The position numbers were made by a program, and so were the translations under genes. This document shows, one piece after another, positions 5,819-63,419 of a stretch of DNA of 64,000 nucleotides (the first letter of the stretch is position 1; the number at the start of each line of letters is the position of its first letter). The stretch comes from Parcubacteria group bacterium. Its GTDB lineage: Bacteria > Patescibacteriota > Minisyncoccia > 2-02-FULL-40-12. A model generated the notes under the pieces. The model worked only from the letters and a program-made list of their open reading frames with translations. It ran no database searches and was not told where the DNA came from. The stretch spans positions 76,289 through 140,288 of the forward strand of contig JACPLU010000003.1 of NCBI GenBank assembly GCA_016186395.1. Direction: 5' to 3'.

Positions 5819-6511
5819 ATGTCAGAAATACAGTGGGCTAACATTATGCCCAGTTACGATGATATGCTTGCGGCTGGAATGCACTATGGCCGCAAAAAGA
5901 CTGTATTCCATCCAAAGATGGAGCGTTTTGTGTATGCGTTGCGTGAGTCAATCCATATTATAGATTTATTAAAAACCGAGGAAAGATTAAAAGAAGCATG
6001 CGAAGCTCTTAAATCATTTAAAGATTCCAGCAAATTAATTCTTTGGGTAGCTTCGACAAAGCAATCAGAAGTTAAAATAGAGGAAATAGCAAAAGAATTT
6101 GCTTTGCCTTATGTTTTAAATCGTTGGCTTGGCGGAACTCTTACTAATTTTAAGACAATAAGAAGCAGGGTCAATTACTTTGAACAGATAGAGGAAAAGT
6201 TAAAGAAAGAACAAAGCAGTCCACAAATGATTAAAAAGGAAAGGGTTAAACTGGAGAAACAGTATCAAGATATGAAAGAAAAATTTGATGGTTTGCGAAG
6301 CCTTAATAGAGTTCCTGAAGCAATATTTATAACCTCATTAAAAGAGGGTGTCTCTGCGGCTAAAGAAGCTAAAAGATTAGGCGTTAAGACTTTTGCTATT
6401 GTAAACACCGAAAGTGACCCAACGTCCGTTGATTATCCGATTCCTGCTAACGATAATGCAAAAGGTTCGGTTGAGCTTATTTTAGATACGATTCGAAAAG
6501 CACTCATATAA
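5819..6511 (+). CDS. rpsB: 30S ribosomal protein S2
   Basis: LAAGMHYGRKKTVFHPKMERFVY...; S2 family, followed by tsf. Confidence 0.92.
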   Translation: MSEIQWANIMPSYDDMLAAGMHYGRKKTVFHPKMERFVYALRESIHIIDLLKTEERLKEACEALKSFKDSSKLILWVASTKQSEVKIEEIAKEFALPYVLNRWLGGTLTNFKTIRSRVNYFEQIEEKLKKEQSSPQMIKKERVKLEKQYQDMKEKFDGLRSLNRVPEAIFITSLKEGVSAAKEAKRLGVKTFAIVNTESDPTSVDYPIPANDNAKGSVELILDTIRKALI

Positions 6512-6514
6512 CCA

Positions 6515-6591
6515 ATGCAAATATACGAATTGATACTAATGATACGAATCTTATTAGTATAATTAGTATGCATTAGTATATTGGTATCGCG
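6515..6591. repeat. palindromic ~78-bp intergenic element, family A copy 1
   Basis: AATATACGAATTGATACTAATGATACGAAT...ATTAGTATAATTAGTATGCATTAGTATATTGGTATCGCG. The left half is approximately the reverse complement of the right half. It ends 1 nt before the tsf TTG start. Confidence 0.8.
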
Positions 6592-20399: not shown

Positions 20400-20613
20400 A
20401 ATACTAGGGTTTTCTTATTGTTGTGTCAATGTTTGACATATTTTAAGCTTTTGATATATTTATGAAATTAGTGCCGAAGACGGCGAGTTGCCCTAAAAGC
20501 ATAAATCTCGTTTAGGTCGAAAATCAATCAAAAGATTGATTTGGGTTTATTATGGTTGACGGCTTATTAGGCCGTCGTTTTATTAGCAAATCTGCAGGTA
20601 TGAGGGTGATCAT
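20400..20613 (+). promoter_or_regulatory. candidate ribosomal L10 leader (autoregulatory 5' UTR)
   Basis: Hairpins GCCG-AAGA-CGGC and AATCAATC-AAAAG-ATTGATTT, then GACGGC-TTATTAG-GCCGTC followed by GTTTT directly before rplJ, which is attenuator-like. Confidence 0.35.
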
Positions 20614-21186
20614 TTGTATCATTCGAATGCATTTGTAGATTGGCATTATATTTTGGCAAAGTCAAAACAAAGGAAACAAGAAGAATTAAGCGTTTTTTCT
20701 AAGAAATTAAAAGACGCAAAAATGGTTTTATTTACATCTTTTGCTGAACAGTCCAAGAAGGGGATTAATGTGGCAAATATGAGAAAGCTAAAAAGGGGAC
20801 TGCGAAACTTAGATTCAGAGTATGTGGTTATTAAAAAAACTCTGGCCAAAAAAGCATTTGATGATGTTACAAAGGATATCCAGATAGATACTAAAAAACT
20901 TTCAGGTTCGGTTGGTTTTATTTTGGGTTTTGGCGATCAAATAGCGCCGACTCAATTTATATATAAATTTTCAAGAGAAAACGAAGCATTGAAAATTTTG
21001 GGTGGTCTTTTAGACACTAAGATACTTTCAGGCAAAGAGGTTATTGAACTTGCTAAATTACCGGGTAGAGAAGTTATTTTAGCTCAACTAGCCTGTACAA
21101 TTAAAGCACCGTTACAGGGTTTGCATAATGTATTACAAGCCAATCTAAAGAATCTTGTTGTGGTTTTGGGTCAAATTAGAAAATAA
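20614..21186 (+). CDS. rplJ: 50S ribosomal protein L10; true start probably downstream of the annotated ATG
   Basis: L10 family similarity from ~residue 15. Followed by rplL. Confidence 0.8.
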   Translation: MYHSNAFVDWHYILAKSKQRKQEELSVFSKKLKDAKMVLFTSFAEQSKKGINVANMRKLKRGLRNLDSEYVVIKKTLAKKAFDDVTKDIQIDTKKLSGSVGFILGFGDQIAPTQFIYKFSRENEALKILGGLLDTKILSGKEVIELAKLPGREVILAQLACTIKAPLQGLHNVLQANLKNLVVVLGQIRK

Positions 21187-21194
21187 TCCGATTC

Positions 21195-21267
21195 TAATAT
21201 ACGAATTAATGCGAATGATACGAATAATATTTGTATAATTAGTATGTATTAGTATATTGGTATCGCG
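21195..21267. repeat. palindromic intergenic element, family A copy 2
   Basis: CTAATATACGAATTAATGCGAATGATACGAAT...ATAATTAGTATGTATTAGTATATTGGTATCGCG. It ends 5 nt before the rplL ATG. Confidence 0.8.
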
Positions 21268-34560: not shown

Positions 34561-34650
34561 ATTACTTGCAGAACACCGCGGCCGTAAGGCCGCGGATGAA
34601 TGCAAGCCCTGAAGTGAGTCGAGTTTGACTCGACGAACGAAAGGTAAATA
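34561..34650. repeat. hairpin repeat family B copy 1
   Basis: CCGCGGCC-GTAA-GGCCGCGG, GATGAATGCAAGCCC and GAGTCGAG...CTCGAC. It is followed (34650-34735) by three further perfect palindromes before murF. Confidence 0.6.
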
Positions 34651-34743
34651 TATAAATCAAATTTCAGCAAAAATCATTAATGTATTTTTGCTGAAATTGT
34701 ACTCGCCCGAGTACCACGGGCGTACGCCCGTGGATATCTATTT

Positions 34744-37507: not shown

Positions 37508-37942
37508 CTACTTTTTTTGATTTAAATTTTTGACATTAGCTTTTAGGAACGCCTGGATATGATTTAAAATTGGTTCTTTTTTATGCGGTCTGCTTCCAGC
37601 GATATGCTTGGCGAATCTATAAAGTCTATCATTGCTAATATAAATCCATGACCCGTTCTTATACAGAAAGTATAGTAAACACATGATAGCAATTCTTTTA
37701 TTTCCATTTTGAAATGGGTGGTTTTTTATTAAAAGATAAAATAAAACACTCCCTTTGCCAATAAGACCTCTATAGAAATCTGTTTTATCAAAACTTGCAA
37801 AAGGGACGGCAAGACAACTTTCAAGTATATTAGGGAATCTTGAACCAAAATTGGGAATAGGTTCATTCCATGTCATTAACTTTTCTGCTAAACGGAAGGC
37901 TGTGTATTCTACCTCGGCAATTGTTAGTTGTTTTGGTCTCAT
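37508..37942 (-). CDS. Doc/Fic-family toxin
   Basis: HPFQNGNKR matches the Doc-type Fic motif HxFx(D/N)GNKR. Confidence 0.75.
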   Translation of the reverse strand: MRPKQLTIAEVEYTAFRLAEKLMTWNEPIPNFGSRFPNILESCLAVPFASFDKTDFYRGLIGKGSVLFYLLIKNHPFQNGNKRIAIMCLLYFLYKNGSWIYISNDRLYRFAKHIAGSRPHKKEPILNHIQAFLKANVKNLNQKK

Positions 37943-38193
37943 TCCTTTCCAAGTAATTTAAAAACTTCACCATAGTCTGCAATGGCTTTATTGAGGGCTT
38001 TTTCAATATTATCTTTTTTTTCTTGACCAATTGATTTTCCCAAAGCTTCTAATAGATTTTCGTGGCTGACTATATAGTTTCTTCCAACCTTCTCGGCTTT
38101 TAGTTTCCCTTTTTTGATACGGTTGAATACCCCCACTCTGCTTATATGTAATATATGTGCTACTTCAGTTGTAGAATAGTATTTTTTTGTCAT
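37939..38193 (-). CDS. HTH (excisionase/MerR-like) DNA-binding protein, putative antitoxin/regulator of the Doc gene
   Basis: TTEVAHILHISRVGVFNRIKKGKL helix-turn-helix. Its stop overlaps the Doc start by 4 nt. Confidence 0.6.
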   Translation of the reverse strand: MTKKYYSTTEVAHILHISRVGVFNRIKKGKLKAEKVGRNYIVSHENLLEALGKSIGQEKKDNIEKALNKAIADYGEVFKLLGKE

Positions 38194-38225
38194 ATTCGTA
38201 TGTTAACATATGTTAACATACGAAT
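38194..38225. promoter_or_regulatory. 32-bp perfect palindrome (putative operator) abutting the HTH gene start
   Basis: ATTCGTATGTTAACATATGTTAACATACGAAT is its own reverse complement. It lies immediately 5' of the ATG at 38193. Confidence 0.6.
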
Positions 38226-38264: not shown

Positions 38265-38526
38265 TATTATTTCTTGTAGAATACCCCGCGGTTTGCCCCG
38301 TCACCAGACCCAGCACAGCAATGCCAGAATGTTTTGGGTTTAAGTGCACTTCAGTCCGTAGAGTACACTTACTTTAGTAAGAACCGTTCTAATAAAGCAT
38401 TGGTACAGAAAACCAGTGCTGGGCTCGGTGCGGGGCTTGCCACGGAGATGAATGTAAGCCCGAAGCGAAGCCAAGTCAGACTTGGCGAAGCGGAGGAAAT
38501 AACATAAATCCAGCAATTTTTGAAAT
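38265..38526. repeat. hairpin repeat family B copy 2, with a long internal stem insertion
   Basis: Shares the 5' end TATTATTTCTTGTAGAATACCCCGCGG and the 3' end GATGAATGTAAGCCCGAAGCGAAG...GCGGAGGAAATAACATAAATCCAGCAATTTTTGAAA with copy 3. Confidence 0.65.
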
Positions 38527-38683
38527 ATTTAAAAAATACTAATTCTTTTCAAAAATTGCGTAGGGTACTCTTTTTAAGAGTACCTCACAGCTTGCTGTGA
38601 GGATTTCTATTAATTTGTTTTGATATGCTGATTTTCTTCTCTTTCAAACATGCAGGGTGGAGTAAATAAAAAGCCCTTGTGGG

Positions 38684-40480: not shown

Positions 40481-40616
40481 TATTATTTCTTGCAGAATAC
40501 CCCGCGGCCTGTCTGCCGATAGGCAGGCTTGCCGTGGGGATGAATGCAAGCCCGAAGCAAAGTCGAGCTTAGCTCGACGAAGCGGAGGAAATAACATAAA
40601 TCCAGCAATTTTTGAA
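40481..40616. repeat. hairpin repeat family B copy 3
   Basis: TATTATTTCTTGCAGAATACCCCGCGGCC..., GATGAATGCAAGCCCGAAGC, AGTCGAGCTTAGCTCGAC, GCGGAGGAAATAACATAAATCCAGCAATTTTTGAAA. Confidence 0.65.
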
Positions 40617-40647
40617 AGGTTTTAACTCGGATATATCAACCCGTTGA

Positions 40648-40806
40648 GCTTGCTGAATAATACTCTTTCTCTTTCTTCGCAAACCCCAGCGTGGTTTGCT
40701 CAGGGGTTGAGTCTTTCGCTCTTACCCGGCTCTTTCAAAAGAAAGAGCCGGGTAAACCATGCCCGCTACAGGCTCAAAACCCGTTCAAGAGTATTATTTC
40801 AGCAAG
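40648..40806. repeat. MITE-like element family E copy 1 with ~19-bp terminal inverted repeats
   Basis: Begins CTTGCTGAATAATACTCTT and ends AAGAGTATTATTTCAGCAAG. Internal hairpins CGCAAACCCC/GGTTTGC and ACCCGGCTCTTTC-AAAA-GAAAGAGCCGGGT. Confidence 0.7.
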
Positions 40807-40817
40807 AGTTTATTATT

Positions 40818-41429
40818 TTAGTTTCTTCTTTCCAACGCATCTTTCAACGTTATTTCGTCAACATATTCCAAAGATGTACCAAAGGATATGCCTCTACCTA
40901 AACGAGTAATTTGAATTTGATCTTGAAGTTTTTTTAATTTGTCCTCGATGTATATGGCAGTGGTGTTGCCAAAAGGCGTGGGGCTTAGTGCCAGAATGAT
41001 TTCCGGTTTTTTATTCTTTTGACTTAGAATATTTTTAATTCTTTGGTTAAGTTGACTGATTGTTAATCTCTCGGCATTTATACCGTCTATAGGATTTATT
41101 GCTCCTCCCAATACGTGATAGTGGCCCTGGTAATGTCCGGTTCTCTCAACTGATTCCAGGTCGCTAATCTTTTCTACAACCATAATTTTAGAAGCGTCTC
41201 TTTTGGGATTTAAGCATATATAACAGCGGTCAGTTTCCCCAACATAAAAACATTGGGTGCAAAGTTTAATTTCTTGTTTCAGGTTGGCAATTAATCTTGC
41301 AAATTCAACAAGTTCCGTTTCGTCGCGGTTTAAAAGCGATAAAACAAAACGGGTCGCTTGACGTGGCCCCACCCCGGGTAAAATCGTAAAAAGTTTTTTT
41401 AGCTTTGTGAAAGATTTCATACGATGCAA
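40818..41429 (-). CDS. recR: recombination protein RecR
   Basis: HhH N-terminus, C4 zinc finger (CTQCFYVGETDRCYIC) and Toprim domain. Confidence 0.9.
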   Translation of the reverse strand: MHRMKSFTKLKKLFTILPGVGPRQATRFVLSLLNRDETELVEFARLIANLKQEIKLCTQCFYVGETDRCYICLNPKRDASKIMVVEKISDLESVERTGHYQGHYHVLGGAINPIDGINAERLTISQLNQRIKNILSQKNKKPEIILALSPTPFGNTTAIYIEDKLKKLQDQIQITRLGRGISFGTSLEYVDEITLKDALERRN

Positions 41430-41872
41430 ATATACGAATTGATACTAATTATACGAATTTAGTTTTTACATCAGTATCAATTTTTACTATTCTTAGCGGT
41501 TTGAGATAGCGACTTCTAAAGTTTATTAATAACCCTAACTTTTTACCCAATGTTTGAAGATATCGCTGAGTTTGGTAGTAGTCTTCCTTTAGTATATATG
41601 TTTTAGCTTTTACTTCTAAAATTATTTTGTTATCTATTAAGAAATCTAATTTATTTCCTGTGTTTTGAATTGTGAACTCTCTCTTATAAGTTATAGACTG
41701 TTCTTTTAGTTCTTTTTCTATTTGATCGCAATATTGTTTTTCCCTATTAAATCTTCCTAATTTATTATGGATGTCAAAGCATATTCCTGTGATGACATAA
41801 GATAATTCTGGATAAATTATCTTATGTTTTTTATTTGTATGATTAGTATGCATTAGTATATTAGTATCGCCT
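41423..41872. mobile_element. family A element copy 3, split by a ~375-bp insert carrying a GxxExxY gene
   Basis: Left half GATGCAAATATACGAATTGATACTAATTATACGAATTT (41423-41460). Right half TGTATGATTAGTATGCATTAGTATATTAGTATCGCC (41836-41872). Both are in the same orientation as copies 1 and 2, and the ORF lies between them. Confidence 0.6.
41449..41853 (-). CDS. GxxExxY-family (PD-(D/E)XK-like) small protein
   Basis: YPELSYVITGICFDIHNKLGRFNREKQY...IILEVKAK...LGLLINFR matches the GxxExxY family layout. The annotated N-terminus MHTNHTN is encoded by the repeat, so the real start is probably downstream. Confidence 0.65.
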   Translation of the reverse strand: MHTNHTNKKHKIIYPELSYVITGICFDIHNKLGRFNREKQYCDQIEKELKEQSITYKREFTIQNTGNKLDFLIDNKIILEVKAKTYILKEDYYQTQRYLQTLGKKLGLLINFRSRYLKPLRIVKIDTDVKTKFV

Positions 41873-43215
41873 TAAACATTTTTTGCTAAGTTTTTAAAAC
41901 TGGCTTGTTCTTCGTCAAAATATAGTTCTAGAAATCCAGTTGGTCCGTTTCTGTGTTTAGCGATTATTATTTCAGCAATATTTTGTTTGTCGGTATCCCG
42001 GCGGACTTTGTCTTCGCGGTAAATAAATATTACCAAATCAGCGTCCTGTTCAATAGAACCGGAAGATCGTAGGTCAGATAATTTCGGTCTTTGATCTGGT
42101 CTGGCTTCTGTAGCACGGGATAACTGGGATATGGCAAGGACTGGGATATTTAATTCTCTTGCCAAGGCTTTTAAGTTTCTTGAAATTTCGGTAATCTGTT
42201 GAACTTCGCTATCATAGTTTCTTTGTGATCTAATTAGTTGAAGATAATCAACAATAATCATTCCAAGGCCATGTTCGGCTTGTAAACGTCTGGCCATTGC
42301 CCGCATTTGTAAAACCGTAGGGGACGGGGAATCGTCAATAAAGATTGGAGTCTGTGCCAAGCTACCTAATGCGACACTGATTCTACTGAAGTCACTTGTT
42401 TCACCGTCCATTGAAAGTTTTCCGGTTCTTAATTTCCAAAGGCTTATTCCTGCTTCTGAAGAAATAAGTCTGTCGATAACCTGTTCTTTAGACATTTCTA
42501 GACTAAATATTCCAACTGGTACGTTTTCTTTTTTCGAGGCATTGCGGGCGATGTCCATAGCCATAGAAGTTTTACCTAATGACGGTCTGGCTGCTAGGAC
42601 GACTAAATCAGATTTTTGAAAACCAGCAGTTAATGAGTCAAGGTCATAAAATCCAGTTGAAATACCTCTAAGAGCGCCGTCTCCTTTGTGCAGTCGATCT
42701 AGTCTTTCAAAGGCGTCATCCAGTGTGTGTTTTATGTGCACAAATTCCTGGGAAAGAGATTTTTGAGAAACAGAAAAAAGTTTTTGTTCGGCAAGGTCTA
42801 AAATATTTTCTATTTCTTCCTCCTCTTGAAATCCAAGCTCTATTATTTGATGGGAGACATTTATTAGCTCTCTAAGAATTCTTTTACGCTGAACTATTTT
42901 TGAGTACTGAACTATGTGAGCAGATGTGGGAACCAAAGACAGAAGATTGGTGACATAGGTTACACCCCCCGCATCTTTCAGAAAACTAAGCTCCTCCAGT
43001 TTATTGGTTAGGGTTACAACATCAATTGGTTCTCTTTTTTGGTAAAGTTGAACTATTGCTTCAAAGATCAGCTGGTGTGAACGGTTATAGAAGTCGTCAG
43101 GAGTAAGGGTATCTATAACTCGGTGAATTGAGTCCGGATCAATTAAAATAGAACCAAGAAGAGATTTCTCGGCATCAATGTTTTGTGGAGGAAGTTTGTC
43201 TAGAGGATTGGTCAC
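41872..43215 (-). CDS. dnaB: replicative DNA helicase DnaB
   Basis: GTG start; Walker A GARPSLGKTS; DnaB N- and C-terminal domains. Confidence 0.92.
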   Translation of the reverse strand: MTNPLDKLPPQNIDAEKSLLGSILIDPDSIHRVIDTLTPDDFYNRSHQLIFEAIVQLYQKREPIDVVTLTNKLEELSFLKDAGGVTYVTNLLSLVPTSAHIVQYSKIVQRKRILRELINVSHQIIELGFQEEEEIENILDLAEQKLFSVSQKSLSQEFVHIKHTLDDAFERLDRLHKGDGALRGISTGFYDLDSLTAGFQKSDLVVLAARPSLGKTSMAMDIARNASKKENVPVGIFSLEMSKEQVIDRLISSEAGISLWKLRTGKLSMDGETSDFSRISVALGSLAQTPIFIDDSPSPTVLQMRAMARRLQAEHGLGMIIVDYLQLIRSQRNYDSEVQQITEISRNLKALARELNIPVLAISQLSRATEARPDQRPKLSDLRSSGSIEQDADLVIFIYREDKVRRDTDKQNIAEIIIAKHRNGPTGFLELYFDEEQASFKNLAKNV

Positions 43216-45229: not shown

Positions 45230-45366
45230 GTACTCGGAATTCAGAGTGCAAGGGGGTGGAGCTCACGGGCTCCACCAAACCCGCATTGTGGCGGAAAGCC
45301 ACAGTGTGATTCCAGCCCGGCGTAGACCGGTGACTGGGGGGTGGTGCTCCGGCGCCACCCTTTTTC
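45230..45366 (+). ncRNA. candidate ~135-nt small RNA (promoter-to-terminator unit U1)
   Basis: Starts about 7 nt after the -10 box. Hairpins GGTGGAGC-TCACG-GGCTCCACC and GTGGC-GGAAA-GCCAC. 3' module CCAGCCCGGCGTAGACCGGTGACTGGGGGG. Terminator GGTGGTGC-TCC-GGCGCCACC followed by CTTTTTCC. Confidence 0.45.
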
Positions 45367-45444
45367 CTTTATATATTGACATAAGTTGAGGAGTAGTTTA
45401 TATTAATTAACATTGGGGTACCTTAAATTAAAAGGAGGGAATAA

Positions 45445-46459: not shown

Positions 46460-46595
46460 TAGTCTCGGGTCAGGTCAAAAACCGAGTTTTAAAAAGGGAC
46501 GAAGCTTAAGCTTGACCAAGCAATAGTCCCAACCATCATCCAGCCCGGCGTAGACCGGTGTCTGGGGGCCAGTGCTCTTGCGCTGGCCTTTTTCG
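46460..46595 (+). ncRNA. candidate ~135-nt small RNA (unit U3, paralog of U1)
   Basis: CTCGGGTCAGGTCAAAAACCGAG hairpin and AAGCTTAAGCTT palindrome. Same 3' module CCAGCCCGGCGTAGACCGGTGTCTGGGGG. Terminator GCCAGTGC-TCTT-GCGCTGGC followed by CTTTTTCG. Confidence 0.45.
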
Positions 46596-46669
46596 TTTAA
46601 ATAGCTTTTACTGTTGATGATTGGATATTTATATTTATGCTATACTCTAAATTATTGAAACTTCGTATT

Positions 46670-46805
46670 TTATTAATGCTTTTGAGACAATAGGAGGCAC
46701 GGTTTGCTTGGATCTCGATCCGTCCTGGGCGGAGAGGGAAAATCGTGCCGACTCTTAATAAGTGTGCCGCAGGAGCACACGAATGTGTCTAAAAAGCATT
46801 AATAA
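46670..46805 (+). repeat. structured element family F copy 1 (5' of a membrane-protein gene)
   Basis: Outer stem TTATTAATGCTTTTGAGACA/TGTCTAAAAAGCATTAATAA. Inner stems GGCACGGTTT/AAATCGTGCC and GTGTGC-CGCAGGA-GCACAC. Confidence 0.65.
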
Positions 46806-47658: not shown

Positions 47659-47784
47659 TTATTAATGCTTTTGAGACAATAGGAGGCACGATTTGCTTGG
47701 TCCCGAGTTTATCGAGGGAAATCGTGCCGACTCTTAATGAGTGTGCCGCAGGAGCACACGAATGTGTCTCAAAAGCATTAATAA
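47659..47784 (+). repeat. structured element family F copy 2
   Basis: Same outer and inner stems as copy 1 with a variable central segment. It directly precedes the next membrane-protein gene. Confidence 0.65.
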
Positions 47785-53576: not shown

Positions 53577-56273
53577 GTGTCCAAACAGAAAATCTATTCT
53601 GTTCTTTTTGATGTCCTACCAGTTAATCGAAAAACTGGAGATATTGAAATTCAAAAAATAGAGTCGGTTCAGCAAAATCTTGATTTGGCTCAATTCAGGG
53701 ATCCTATTTATTGTGACGTTGTTGACTTAGCTTTTGCAGACCATATTGTGCCGATTGAAACAACTCCTCCCGCGGTAAGCGAAGTAAAATGGAATGCTCA
53801 TCAACAATTAGAAGAAGCTTTGAAAAAAACAACCACTCCATTAAATTTAAATTTTTCTAGTAGTCAAAAGCCGAGGGGAACAATACCCATCCGACAAAGT
53901 CACAAAAACAAAGAGGTTATTAAATCAAAGACGGATTTACCAAATGGAATTTGGGAGATTGGTAGGATTGAAACGCATGCGTCAACCCATTCTTTTTTTC
54001 CAGAACCGATATTGGCAAACGACAGAAACACAAAAAGTTATTTAACGGGGTCAATCCCGTTAGAGGCCCAATTCACGGACTTGAATTGGCAGAAATCGAC
54101 AGATTTCTTGCCTTTAACGGGATCAACAATTTCCAATGAACTAGAAAAGAAACTAAAAGAGCTTAGAGAAGTTAAAATTGAGCCGATTAAGAAGGAAGGG
54201 GTTATTATAAATCTTGGTCCAGCCACAGAAGCAATTCCAGTATCCCCACCAATTGTAGAGAAAGTGACAGTTACAAAAGCAAATTTATCTGAACAAGATC
54301 TTCTGGTGTGTCCGCCTCAAGTAACCAAATTTCAGTGGGGTAAGCTATTAACCGTTGGAATTATTGCAAATATTCTTTTCATAGGAGGACTTAACTTTTT
54401 TCAAAAGGGTATTCAAATCAAGAATGAAGTTACAAAGAAAGGAAACAATGCTTTAGCTAGTTTAGAAAGAGCAAAAGATGCTTTTTTAGGTTTTCGTTTT
54501 GATGACGCTAATCACGAATTTATATTTGCCGAAAAGAATTTTCAATCAGCACAACAGGAATTAAACAATTTTAGTTCTTCATTTCTGGGGTTGATAACTG
54601 CTTTGCCCGGTTTAAATAAAACTAAAGATGCGGAACAACTTAGCGAAGCGGGAAAGCTAATATCGGAATCCGGAGCTGATATAGCTTCAGCTTTTGACGG
54701 GTTAAAGAATGCGAACATTTTATCTTCAATTATACCCGGTGGTTCCAAGAAGCAATCTACCATAGATATGTTTTCTTTATTAAGGACTTTTCGGGTCGCG
54801 CTCATAGGGGCTGATCGAAATGTAGTAAGGGCGGGCAGGCTTTTAGCTGATGTTGATTCATCTTTGATACCTGAAGAAAAAAGAGAAACTTTTATAGATT
54901 TTCAAAATAAAATTCCGGAGTTTTCAAAATTTTTAAATGCGGCAATTGACTATTCGGGGGTTTTAATGGAAGCAATGGGTCAGAATGGTCCTATGCGTTA
55001 TCTTGTTTTGTTGCAAAATACGAGCGAACTTAGGCCGACTGGAGGATTCCCTGGAACTTATGCAGTTGTGGAATTTGATCAGGGAGTAATGAAAAGCTTT
55101 TTTGTGGATGACATATATAATCCTGATGGGCAGTTAAAAGAATTAATTATTCCGCCCAAACCTCTTCAAAAGATTACTCCTACGTGGGGCATGAGAGACT
55201 CGGCTTGGTGGGCGGATTTTCCGACCTCCGCGTATAAGGTTTACGAATTTTATAAGAAAGAACGAAAAGAAGAAATTGACGGTGTTATTGCTTTGAATGT
55301 AGATATGATTCTAAAACTTCTTAAATTCGTTGAGCCAATAAAATTATCTAAATACGGCACTGTTATAAATCCGGAAAATTTTCTGGAAGAGATACAGTCG
55401 GAGGTTGAGTATGGGTCTAACAGAATTCAACCCAAAACAGTCTTAAAAGATTTTGCGCCGTTATTTTTAGATTCAATTACACACATCAGCGAAGATAAGT
55501 GGGCCGATGTATTTTTGTCGATTGTTGAATCCATTCAGCAAAAAGATTTAATGGTTTATTTTTTGGAACCGTCTTTGGAAAAATTTGTTAAGGAAAGCGG
55601 TTTAGCTGGAGAAATCCGTGATTTTGATGGGGACTTTTTAATGATTAATCACACAAACGTGATGGGTTCTAAAACAGACGCTGTTATAGATAATAAAGTA
55701 ACTTTGAAGTTAAACATTAGTCAGGATGTAGTGGAACACGAGTTAACTGTTCAGCGTATCCATAATGGGGGAGACAGTAAATATGGTTTTTTCAATAAGA
55801 AAAATAACGACTACATGAGAGTTTTTGTTCCGAAAGACGCAGAACTTATATCTATTGATGGGAACTCGGACTTTTCTTTTAATCCATTGATTGATTATTC
55901 GGACGGCGAATTTAAAGAAGACCCGGATTTAGAAGACTTGGAATCAGCTCAAAAGGATACTAACGGGATTAAAGAATGGGAAGAAAACGGGAAAAAAGTA
56001 TTTGGTTTTTGGTTAGTACTTGAGCCAAAAACCACAAAGGCGGTTACCATAAGATATAAAACAAATACAATTAAAAATGGTAATTTAATAGATTATTCAC
56101 TTTTAGTTCAAAAACAGCCCGGAGTTAAGAGTAATATAAATATTTCAATAGATTCAGATCGTGACTTAAGTTTGACAGGAAGATTTCCAGAAAGCCTGAA
56201 TGCAATAGGTGATACTCTGGTAATGGATCAGGTTTTTGAAAAAGATATTTTGGTGGGAGCTTCTTTCAAATAG
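53577..56273 (+). CDS. large (898 aa) hypothetical protein with an internal TM segment
   Basis: Long ORF with no family recognised. The true start may be internal. Confidence 0.5.
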   Translation: MSKQKIYSVLFDVLPVNRKTGDIEIQKIESVQQNLDLAQFRDPIYCDVVDLAFADHIVPIETTPPAVSEVKWNAHQQLEEALKKTTTPLNLNFSSSQKPRGTIPIRQSHKNKEVIKSKTDLPNGIWEIGRIETHASTHSFFPEPILANDRNTKSYLTGSIPLEAQFTDLNWQKSTDFLPLTGSTISNELEKKLKELREVKIEPIKKEGVIINLGPATEAIPVSPPIVEKVTVTKANLSEQDLLVCPPQVTKFQWGKLLTVGIIANILFIGGLNFFQKGIQIKNEVTKKGNNALASLERAKDAFLGFRFDDANHEFIFAEKNFQSAQQELNNFSSSFLGLITALPGLNKTKDAEQLSEAGKLISESGADIASAFDGLKNANILSSIIPGGSKKQSTIDMFSLLRTFRVALIGADRNVVRAGRLLADVDSSLIPEEKRETFIDFQNKIPEFSKFLNAAIDYSGVLMEAMGQNGPMRYLVLLQNTSELRPTGGFPGTYAVVEFDQGVMKSFFVDDIYNPDGQLKELIIPPKPLQKITPTWGMRDSAWWADFPTSAYKVYEFYKKERKEEIDGVIALNVDMILKLLKFVEPIKLSKYGTVINPENFLEEIQSEVEYGSNRIQPKTVLKDFAPLFLDSITHISEDKWADVFLSIVESIQQKDLMVYFLEPSLEKFVKESGLAGEIRDFDGDFLMINHTNVMGSKTDAVIDNKVTLKLNISQDVVEHELTVQRIHNGGDSKYGFFNKKNNDYMRVFVPKDAELISIDGNSDFSFNPLIDYSDGEFKEDPDLEDLESAQKDTNGIKEWEENGKKVFGFWLVLEPKTTKAVTIRYKTNTIKNGNLIDYSLLVQKQPGVKSNINISIDSDRDLSLTGRFPESLNAIGDTLVMDQVFEKDILVGASFK

Positions 56274-56284
56274 ATAAGCTTACT

Positions 56285-56467
56285 AAACAATACTCTTTCT
56301 CTTTCTTCGCAAACCCCGGCGTGGTTTGCTTAGGGGTTGAGCCCTTGCGCCACCGCTAAAGCTAAGGCGGCACGCGGTCGCTCTTACCCAGCTCTTTCAA
56401 AAGAAAGAGCTGGGTAAACCGTGCCCGCTACGGACTCAAAAACCGTTCAAGAGTATTATTTAGCAAG
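56285..56467. repeat. MITE-like element family E copy 2, with a 36-bp internal insertion
   Basis: AAACAATACTCTTTCTCTTTCTTCGCAAACCCCGGCGTGGTTTGC...ACCCAGCTCTTTCAAAAGAAAGAGCTGGGT...AAGAGTATTATTTAGCAAG. Confidence 0.7.
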
Positions 56468-60848: not shown

Positions 60849-60876
60849 AAACTAAATGCCCTTATGGGCGCTTTCC

Positions 60877-60953
60877 CCGTAGTGAAAATTTGGAAAGCTA
60901 CGCCAGATGATGCTTTCAGCATCATATTCCAAATTTCTACTACGGGGTTTTTT
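60877..60953 (+). terminator. long-stem terminator hairpin, family D copy 1
   Basis: CCCCGTAGTGAAAATTTGGAA...TTCCAAATTTCTACTACGGGG followed by TTTTTTG, with inner hairpin GATGATGC-TTTC-AGCATCAT. Confidence 0.7.
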
Positions 60954-60973
60954 GTTATCTAATTTAGAGTTAA

Positions 60974-63275: not shown

Positions 63276-63308
63276 TTTTGTAGACTCTTTAGCGGTTACA
63301 GCCGTTTT

Positions 63309-63387
63309 CCCCATAGTGAAAATTTGGAAAGCTTCGCTAGATGATGCTTTTAGCATCATATTCCAAATTTCTACTACGGGGTTTTTT
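63309..63387 (+). terminator. long-stem terminator hairpin, family D copy 3
   Basis: CCCCATAGTGAAAATTTGGAAAGCTTCGCTAGATGATGCTTTTAGCATCATATTCCAAATTTCTACTACGGGG followed by TTTTTTG. Confidence 0.7.
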
Positions 63388-63419
63388 GTTTTTAGAAAAT
63401 ATATTAAAGTAAGGATACC

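Follow-up and report, generated by a model that had tools for sequence, protein, structure and literature searches.

The spacer between dnaB and recR in a Parcubacteria group bacterium (assembly GCA_016186395.1, contig JACPLU010000003.1) raises the question of why a gene for a small GxxExxY protein should stand inside a palindrome that occurs without it in two other spacers of the same region. The stretch analysed here, referred to as the window, comprises 64,000 nucleotides (positions 76,289 to 140,288 of the contig). According to our results, its three copies probably represent a single family of selfish cassettes with inverted repeats at their ends, in which a gene-bearing parent and derivatives resembling miniature inverted-repeat transposable elements (MITEs) would be mobilised by a PD-(D/E)XK nuclease. 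The full form would consist of a 5' arm, the gene for this 134-aa GxxExxY nuclease and a 3' arm; the short form, in which a loop of 2-40 nt joins the arms, would be a non-autonomous derivative. The family has apparently not been described before.

A repeat search of the window recovered a reference copy (6512-6591), a second copy (21188-21267) 88% identical to it over 80 nt, and a split copy of the same repeat with its left half at 41421-41460 and its right half at ~41833-41871 (element bounds are given in Table 1). Read directly against copy 1, the split copy was identical at 35 of 38 positions in the left half and 35 of 39 in the right half, and arms were ~90% identical across the three copies. 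The two arms of a copy are inverted relative to each other, with 84% complementarity over 37 nt. A search for the terminal 16-mer TAGTATATTRGTATCG that allowed up to 3 mismatches gave five occurrences in the window, always in arms of this family; the chance expectation was 0.88 and a count of five was reached in none of 100 shuffles. A sequence-only reading of this stretch had proposed three related palindromic copies, the third split by a GxxExxY gene on the opposite strand, and both proposals held. The open reading frame (ORF) reaches into both arms: it starts at an ATG (41851-41853) in the ACTAATGCAT of the right arm and stops at a TAA (41449-41451) in the left arm, which ends 1 nt short of the recR ATG. 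The right arm carries three ATACKAAT units ~10 bp apart. As also proposed, the composite fills the whole dnaB-recR spacer, where it is co-directional with both host genes: CGAT (41422) stands 1 nt from the recR start codon (41418-41420) and ATCG (41869) 2 nt from the dnaB stop codon (41872-41874). The two gene-less copies had been placed 1-5 nt before the starts of tsf and rplL; this was correct for tsf (2 nt before its TTG), and the distance to the rplL ATG turned out to be 7 nt. The lone arm upstream of rplJ is possibly a relic of an older copy.

Species-representative genomes were scanned with the 21-nt arm core, which yielded 113 stretches, all from Patescibacteria metagenome-assembled genomes (MAGs) except for ~3 chance matches. 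Over a dozen candidate phyla were represented in the MAG labels (among them Azam-, Sungii-, Jorgensen-, Lipton-, Harrison-, Wolfe-, Yanofsky-, Nealson-, Doudna-, Falkow-, Komeili-, Gottesman- and Levyibacteria). These stretches contained ~75 gene-less palindromes (69-125 nt, arms of ~37 nt, loops of 2-40 nt), ~13 gene-bearing copies of a single architecture (414-504 nt), ~7 intermediates and several lone arms, gene-less copies exceeding gene-bearing ones by ~6:1. Both arms flanked the gene in every gene-bearing relative examined (L005, L008, L036, L037, L048, L062, L077, L088, L101, L108 and L112; L and P numbers denote loci and proteins, respectively). Since the gene lay between the arms in all window-type gene-bearing copies, the composite corresponds to an insertion and not to adjacency. 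At the loci of two homologues, the gene was framed by these same arms and had unrelated neighbours (pilB/T|pilC and DUF2229|BcrAD). With the exact 21-mer alone, gene-less copies numbered at least 5 in MEYT01, at least 7 in CAZTRS01 and 5 in CAYQNN01, and both forms occurred together in the window, MEYT01, CAZPYD01 and JAQTPW01. One intermediate, L074, was a decaying copy with a truncated gene between two arms. It was the only one: tblastn found no GxxExxY remnant in the other intermediates of 134-248 nt, which were thus rejected as decayed genes. A phage vector was likewise discarded, the arm core having no match in the viral contigs searched.

Table 1. Coordinates of the element family and of further repeats in the window.
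Feature	Position	Strand	Remarks
Gene-bearing, putatively autonomous element	41422..41869	-	Architecture as in ~13 relatives
5' arm in gene orientation (right half of the split copy)	41833..41869	-	GCGATACTAATATACTAATGCATACTAATCATACAAAT
3' arm in gene orientation (left half of the split copy)	41422..41459	-	ATTCGTATAATTAGTATCAATTCGTATATTTGCATCG
GxxExxY / PDDEXK_3 nuclease gene, 134 aa	41449..41853	-	Predicted catalytic residues D70, E80, K82
Gene-less palindromic copy, MITE-like (copy 1)	6513..6589	-	Fills rpsB-tsf spacer; polarity antisense to operon
Gene-less palindromic copy (copy 2)	21189..21265	-	Fills rplJ-rplL spacer; polarity antisense to operon
Degenerate lone arm	20609..20646	+	Just upstream of rplJ; ~27/35 identical to right-arm type; weak assignment
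Further repeat	34594-34658, 38434-38533, 40526-40625
Further repeat	60862-60956 / 63296-63390
Further repeat	40636-40799 / 56266-56461
Further repeat	46737-46805 / 47716-47784
Further repeat	45311-45375 / 46539-46603

Nearly every copy was located between two co-directional genes, with the upstream stop codon commonly 2 nt from the terminal CGAT and the downstream start commonly 5-7 nt from ATCG. Gene-bearing copies occupied the junctions dnaB|recR, pilT|pilC, nrdA|nrdB, secE|nusG and that of two transketolase halves, and one lay upstream of dnaX. Gene-less copies were recorded at groES|groEL, grpE|dnaK, atpG|atpD, atpD|atpC, secY|adk, rpsD|rpoA, nusB|rnc and tig|clpP, and elements also occurred at rpmI|rplT and ssb|rpsR. 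The orientation of gene-less copies relative to the operon was close to random (23 sense, 27 antisense); gene-bearing copies were mostly sense (~10-11 versus 2-3 antisense), which fits a gene reliant on host transcription. Amplification within genomes was evident from near-identical copies that included private loops and had unrelated flanks (100% for L060/L112, 97% for L040/L057, 95% for L076/L089; such same-genome pairs spanned 94-100% identity). Mean copy identity was 0.82 within genomes versus 0.74 between them, and the nearest neighbour was from the same genome for 26 of 53 copies. In hosts with 54-55% G+C, the AT-rich element contrasted sharply with its flanks. Its distribution was sporadic: among 80 metagenomic rplL loci (RplL 51-63% identical), a single one displayed the element in the rplJ-rplL spacer, and most spacers were plain, with a Shine-Dalgarno sequence. 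A conserved tsf or rplL leader was rejected on account of the 79 loci that lack the element. The mobile MITE/parent relationship first suggested for the window is supported by this result, by the other GxxExxY genes flanked by the palindrome and by the dozens of unrelated gene pairs in which it occurs.

Some further features of these spacers were observed. Unrelated palindromic repeats were present between rplJ and rplL in other genomes of the candidate phyla radiation (CPR), namely L145 (CTAATTTCTAATTACTAAT...ATTAGAAATTAGTAATTAG), L152, L155 and L199, and small repeats seem commonly to land, or to be retained, in this spacer. In the higher-G+C hosts L060, L112, L085, L128, L069 and L093, the motif (A)AGCGAAGCG stood between the element end and the downstream start whatever the orientation of the element; this motif could serve as a translation signal particular to the lineage or could belong to another small repeat. 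GC-rich hairpins related to those of the window were nested in disrupted or atypical copies (L028, L109, L111, L151). An exact RplL look-up for close strain variants with an empty site retrieved only the short-read Logan contig SRR12113430_51763 (L131), which ends 35 nt upstream of rplL, inside the palindrome. These palindromes break assemblies, and their copies will be under-counted in MAGs.

In gene orientation, the consensus of the 5' side is GCGATRCYAATATACTAATGCATACTAATnATACGAAT, followed by the gene or the loop, and that of the 3' side is ATTAGTATcATTAGTATnAATTCGTATATTrGCATCG. Each arm is composed of three, at times four, ATACKAAT octamers at a spacing of 9-10 nt, i.e. about one helical turn, and the arrays terminate in ...TATATTRGYATCG. 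The arms differ in their outer unit, ACTAAT in one and ACGAAT in the other, a polarity shared by gene-less copies and most gene-bearing ones. Between copies with saturated synonymous sites (pS 0.56-0.8), arms were still ~89% identical, and the protein core of these same gene-bearing copies, with a dN/dS of 0.05-0.10, is under purifying selection. Because they are far better conserved than the synonymous sites of the gene, the arms were considered functional DNA; they appear to be under strong purifying selection as sequence. The C-terminal IDTD codons were considered as a fourth arm unit and discarded: they vary synonymously, so that the constraint acts on the protein.

Pairing between the arms left no such signature. 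No covariation was detected at the variable arm positions of 94 aligned elements, and several mismatches were conserved. Pair counts at stem position 6 were A:C 32, G:C 25, A:T 18 and G:T 15; C:A was the commonest pair (36) at position 8; position 16 displayed a T.C mismatch in 75 of the 94 elements, and positions 20, 21 and 35 were usually mismatched too. The sense-strand RNAs of the two gene-less window copies fold with -23 and -25 kcal/mol (z ~-3.1), and at z ~-3 the fold energies of RNA and DNA do not go beyond those that follow from any imperfect palindrome. A hairpin selected as structure was ruled out on these grounds. Since covariation was lacking and fold energies were unremarkable, it is the sequence that would be selected and not the pairing, and the arms are read as symmetric arrays of putative protein-binding sites on duplex DNA.

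The protein encoded in the window reached profile scores of 72.3 bits for PF13366 PDDEXK_3 (cut-off 22) and 68.2 bits for TIGR04256 GxxExxY (cut-off 35); its other Pfam match, HSDR_N_2, was below its cut-off. It displays FxxExxY instead of the literal GxxExxY motif and, as the motif G is replaced, family membership rests on the profile score. The subfamily motif is G33-R-(F/Y)-x-R-E38-K-Q-Y41, with E38 and Y41 invariant and F or Y three residues before E. The PD-(D/E)XK signature, D...(D/E)xK on a restriction-endonuclease-like fold, was present, D70, E80 and K82 being invariant. The PD-(D/E)XK fold suspected from the sequence was confirmed in an AlphaFold model (predicted local distance difference test, pLDDT, 83.9), whose best fold matches were DNA nucleases (Cas4, Dna2 and restriction enzymes such as BpuSI and SwaI); no relative of solved structure was found by sequence. 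The arm-encoded residues 1-8 and 129-134 were disordered in the model. The N-terminus, MHTNHTN in the window, is encoded by the arm; as MHTNDTNK it is nearly invariant in 32 homologues (N4, T6 and N7 are invariant). Since the arm-encoded termini are modelled as disordered, their conservation would act at the DNA level. Some over-long gene calls among homologues read DTNILMHTNDTN, which is translated arm as well. A tandem duplication of the 5' arm, with copies 45 nt apart, was observed ahead of the gene in L062 (3823-4327, minus strand); it is mirrored by the over-long gene call P0008, which reads DTNILMHTNDTNRDTNIRMHTNNTNK.

Homologues at ~70% identity numbered in the hundreds, in Patescibacteria metagenomes, and the exact window protein was found at this one locus only. 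No DDE, HUH, serine or tyrosine recombinase domain was detected in the protein with Pfam/NCBIfam, PADLOC and PHROG profiles, the PHROG match being to a family of unknown function. An anti-phage defence system was rejected: PADLOC gave only a weak Cas4b similarity (E 1e-4), and the neighbours dnaB and recR are no partner genes. PDDEXK_3 was listed as of unknown function in a superfamily survey of 2012 (PMC3424549). Other full-text literature searches retrieved no paper on PF13366/TIGR04256, a large and widespread family, and none on such elements in CPR bacteria.

Cognate pairs of gene and repeat were also found in other GxxExxY subfamilies; in a PF13366 profile search, public data yielded ~3,200 clusters (50% identity). 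In L008, a second gene (L008-1) has its own inverted repeats built of AACGAATAAT, the GxxExxY gene of L104 is bordered by inverted repeats of GTACRAGAT, and the subfamily inserted in RecG uses the unit CCCGAATTT. In Gemmatirosa, a palindrome built of CGCGGAT adjoins the gene. Bacteroides finegoldii, whose protein carries a canonical GLLESTY, displayed 30-nt inverted repeats of CAGAGGAC (90% complementary) around a gene that stands between radA and the gene after it; the same 25-kb contig also contained one gene-less and one half copy, and the arm recurred in 16 Bacteroides records. Many PF13366 matches were long host proteins with the domain inside, namely RecG (between helicase motifs II and III) and family 4 (GT4) glycosyltransferases, or read-through fusions (GxxExxY-archease, GxxExxY-pilin). 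Internal domains were bordered by low-complexity peptides that correspond to translated arms, and gene-less versions were found in frame elsewhere in those RecG and GT4 proteins. RecG P0166 (899 aa) carries an in-frame cassette, which is absent from P0271 and P0272 (725 aa), its closest relatives at 87-88% identity, a clean occupied/empty pair that was obtained for this sister subfamily only. At that same site, PF13366 was present in ~35 of the best 120 RecG homologues, and two subfamilies were involved. Window-type elements were also considered as in-frame insertions inside genes and gave one dubious case only.

Several observations concern these proteins and operons. Gene-less palindromes of other subfamilies were translated in frame in RecG or GT4 proteins P0133, P0153, P0156, P0273, P0275, P0287, P0346 and P0381, where they read as pairs of low-complexity peptides (QTQTNTD...SASSQRLSAL, or NRPQQPEHTRMTRTGEQM...GSNSDSSGR three times); in-frame translated palindromes may be common in CPR proteins. 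A separate in-frame RecG insertion of 105 nt, INPPTFWRDNDSRQKNYILPSTTPLLATGHSKGRR (L217/P0166 compared with L218/P0272, protein alignment columns ~370-412), displayed CCTCCGACCTTTTG...CAAAAGGTAGGAGG as terminal inverted repeats together with a direct duplication of 6 bp (ATAAAT), and was missing in the 87%-identical relative. It is a distinct, classical MITE that entered in frame and has a target-site duplication. In L008-L017 (798-2993 and 3449-5680), the DUF2229 and BcrAD/BadFG genes that flank the two GxxExxY cassettes each carry an intein (Intein_splicing, faint LAGLIDADG), which makes three kinds of selfish insertion in one operon.

From this comparison we infer a mobility initiated by cleavage and completed by host repair or recombination. 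The nuclease, probably as a symmetric oligomer, would bind the octamer arrays of both arms in duplex DNA and cut at or near the element termini, after which host recombination or repair would copy or re-insert the element. Gene-less copies with intact binding arrays would be mobilised in trans. The full form would need neither promoter nor ribosome-binding site of its own, since it would normally lie in the direction of the host operon with its ATG, in the arm, ~20 nt past the upstream stop. Copies would persist where they are least harmful, in spacers of a few nucleotides between co-transcribed housekeeping genes, in an organism whose genes mostly do without a Shine-Dalgarno sequence; in sister subfamilies, copies would also persist in frame inside proteins.

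A number of points weigh against such a cassette. The alignment of copies that had been suggested for the definition of a target-site duplication revealed none: at no offset were direct repeats of 2-4 nt more frequent than expected, except where the match fell within the element. Flank analysis found no defined insertion target, orientation-resolved flanks displaying only a symmetric C-N-T-T extension. For the window-type element no empty site was found in a close relative, the empty rplJ|rplL relatives being only 51-63% identical. A cognate GxxExxY gene was documented for some of the genomes with gene-less copies, and all of the support is comparative. To our knowledge, a lone PD-(D/E)XK nuclease has no strand-transfer or joining activity, and the integration step is missing from the model. 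Finally, rplJ|rplL, nusB|rnc, pilT|pilC, rpsD|rpoA and the spacer downstream of dnaB were repeatedly occupied in different lineages, sometimes in opposite orientations; rplJ|rplL, for instance, was occupied in the window, L096, L128 and L151, with L096 and L128 opposite to the window. Together with the RecG site, this repeat occupancy could reflect site-specific homing or old vertical inheritance and not transposition.

Homing into the palindrome, the second variant offered by the sequence-only reading, is the best-surviving alternative, even if it seems unlikely. The palindrome would be an independent repeat, either ancient or spread by something else, and GxxExxY a free-standing homing endonuclease gene, its product cutting the palindrome centre as a dimer, with repair from a gene-bearing copy using the arms as homology. 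Cleavage of palindromic sites by a dimer is typical of PD-(D/E)XK enzymes, the gene lies exactly between the arms, and the absence of a target-site duplication is what repair-mediated copying predicts. The single RecG site, occupied by one or the other of two subfamilies depending on the lineage and vacant in the closest relatives, follows the classic homing endonuclease/intein pattern, in line with the reoccupied spacers, and the gene-less loops of various lengths could be cleavage-resistant alleles. Yet homing leaves unexplained how gene-less palindromes reach new loci and amplify near-identically in one genome. The start codon in one arm and the stop in or next to the other fit better with arms that are integral to the unit. 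Moreover, one ~70%-identical subfamily occupies many unrelated sites, unlike single-target enzymes, and an efficient drive would tend to fill gene-less copies, which are nevertheless in large excess.

A regulatory module beneficial to the host, with GxxExxY as an accessory or passenger, would be less probable still and is a rather poor candidate. It could act as a -10 box, as an mRNA hairpin that couples stop and start or masks the start, or as a processing site. Both termini do carry an outward-facing TATATT, 7 nt from the terminus, at a distance from the start that is compatible with leaderless transcripts for tsf and recR in the window. Shine-Dalgarno-like motifs preceded ~17 of 61 long window ORFs and many window genes displayed a TATAAT-like hexamer 6-9 nt before the start (e.g. 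ORFs at 5819, 18421(-), 24866 and 53577), which suggests that leaderless or very short-leader mRNAs are frequent in this organism. The regular placement of stops and starts at the palindrome base, the sense-RNA fold energies of the gene-less window copies and the apparent purifying selection on the arms could be accommodated too. However, the distance from TATATT to the start was 10-22 nt in most relatives, and a sigma-70 consensus scan of 41300-42000 passed over the arms and found no terminator, so that a promoter by consensus was rejected, a scan that does not in itself exclude promoter activity. At the gathering threshold, Rfam models matched five tRNAs in the whole window and nothing at the elements, and a known RNA family was discarded. 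A regulatory role also sits badly with relatives that have ordinary Shine-Dalgarno spacers in place of the element, with random orientation, with conserved mismatches and lacking covariation, and with sister elements in frame inside proteins, where a promoter would be senseless; it leaves the enclosed nuclease gene unexplained.

Excision at the RNA level, by which the arms would pair in the transcript and GxxExxY or RNase III would remove the insert as in the ORF-containing intervening sequences of 23S rRNA or archaeal bulge-helix-bulge splicing, is hardly credible: an ORF within an inverted-repeat stem does resemble rRNA intervening sequences, but there is no covariation to maintain a helix, gene-less copy 2 in antisense orientation has a fold that is not better than that of shuffled sequence (z -0.9), the RecG and glycosyltransferase copies keep an open frame through arms and gene, which would be needless, and the best fold matches are DNA nucleases.

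Among known systems, the closest to the selfish cassette favoured here are the pairs of repetitive extragenic palindromes (REPs) and REP-associated tyrosine transposases (RAYTs) and the pairs of MITEs and insertion sequences (ISs), with features of Rickettsia palindromic elements (RPEs) and of free-standing homing endonuclease genes. As in REP/RAYT systems ('REPtron'), many short extragenic palindromes, presumably mobilised in trans, occur in spacers of co-transcribed genes together with a rare small gene between inverted copies. RAYTs, however, are IS200/IS605-like HUH-Y1 single-strand transposases that recognise a folded hairpin, whereas the enzyme is here a PD-(D/E)XK nuclease, the arms are iterated octamers without covariation, and the start and stop codons of the gene lie within them. 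Bacterial MITEs and their parent ISs (Correia/CREE of Neisseria, IS630- and IS5-derived elements) likewise display terminal inverted repeats, multicopy gene-less forms below 150 bp that are intergenic and co-transcribed, ends in common with a longer gene-bearing element, and amplification within genomes. They differ from the present family in target-site duplication and in a parent with a DDE, serine or tyrosine enzyme, where here a 134-aa nuclease is alone in an autonomous unit of ~450 bp.

Like RPEs, the elements are found between genes and, for the sister subfamilies in RecG and GT4, in frame within conserved proteins that they do not destroy. We know of no enzyme gene associated with RPEs; in the present family a cognate nuclease gene lies between the arms, and the window-type subfamily is almost always intergenic. 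Homing endonuclease genes and inteins (T4 seg/mob, the PD-(D/E)XK enzyme I-Ssp6803I) are comparable as small, sporadic nuclease genes between or inside essential genes, without target-site duplication, with reoccupation of the same site and with close relatives that have the site empty (RecG, in sister subfamilies). In contrast to the elements described here, they lack long inverted repeats and gene-less palindromic derivatives that amplify at many unrelated loci; one GxxExxY subfamily occupies many different sites. The ORF-containing intervening sequences of 23S rRNA (S23p) also place a small ORF of unknown function in an inverted repeat within a highly expressed housekeeping unit, but they are excised by RNase III and encode a four-helix-bundle protein, unlike the nuclease, the absence of helix covariation and the translatable in-frame copies encountered here. 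No HUH enzyme, stem covariation, target-site duplication or single target site was found, and a defining feature of each of these systems is missing. As a more tentative generalisation, which we hold with less confidence than the reading of the window copies, PF13366 GxxExxY proteins might be the sole dedicated enzyme of an unrecognised class of mobile elements across several phyla. These would be nuclease-only cassettes of ~450 bp with cognate octamer arrays that spawn MITEs and colonise essential-operon spacers and, in frame, proteins such as RecG, as hybrids of homing endonuclease and transposon without DDE, HUH, serine or tyrosine chemistry.

Other repeats were encountered in the window. 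A perfect 32-nt palindrome, ATTCGTATGTTAACATATGTTAACATACGAAT (38194-38225), is built on an octamer identical to the arm unit. It adjoins the start of an 84-aa helix-turn-helix (HTH) protein (37939-38193, minus strand), which is followed by a Fic/Doc-like protein of 144 aa with HPFQNGNKR (37508-37942, minus strand). It was discarded as a relative of the arms, the simplest reading being an operator of an HTH/Doc pair; it is probably a toxin-antitoxin operator, and the common octamer may be a coincidence. The repeat search also revealed at least five other intergenic repeat families, several of them GC-rich hairpins such as GCCCGAAGC...GACTCGAC...GGAGGAAATAACATAAATC (Table 1).

A testable role thus emerges for PF13366/TIGR04256: its members would act as nucleases in selfish cassettes bounded by palindromic arms, and the arrays on either side of the gene would be the likely DNA substrate. 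Bacteroides finegoldii, which displays the same architecture, offers a cultivable and genetically tractable host. For annotation, arm-encoded N-terminal extensions and the GxxExxY-archease, GxxExxY-pilin and in-RecG 'fusions' would be by-products of the element and not domain architectures. If the nuclease alone drives its spread, the cassette would be a mobile element without conventional transposase or recombinase. Such elements would account for the conserved AT-rich palindromes in the streamlined genomes of Patescibacteria, e.g. between groES and groEL, atpD and atpC, or rplJ and rplL, as well as for odd low-complexity insertions in their proteins and for assembly breaks at such sites.

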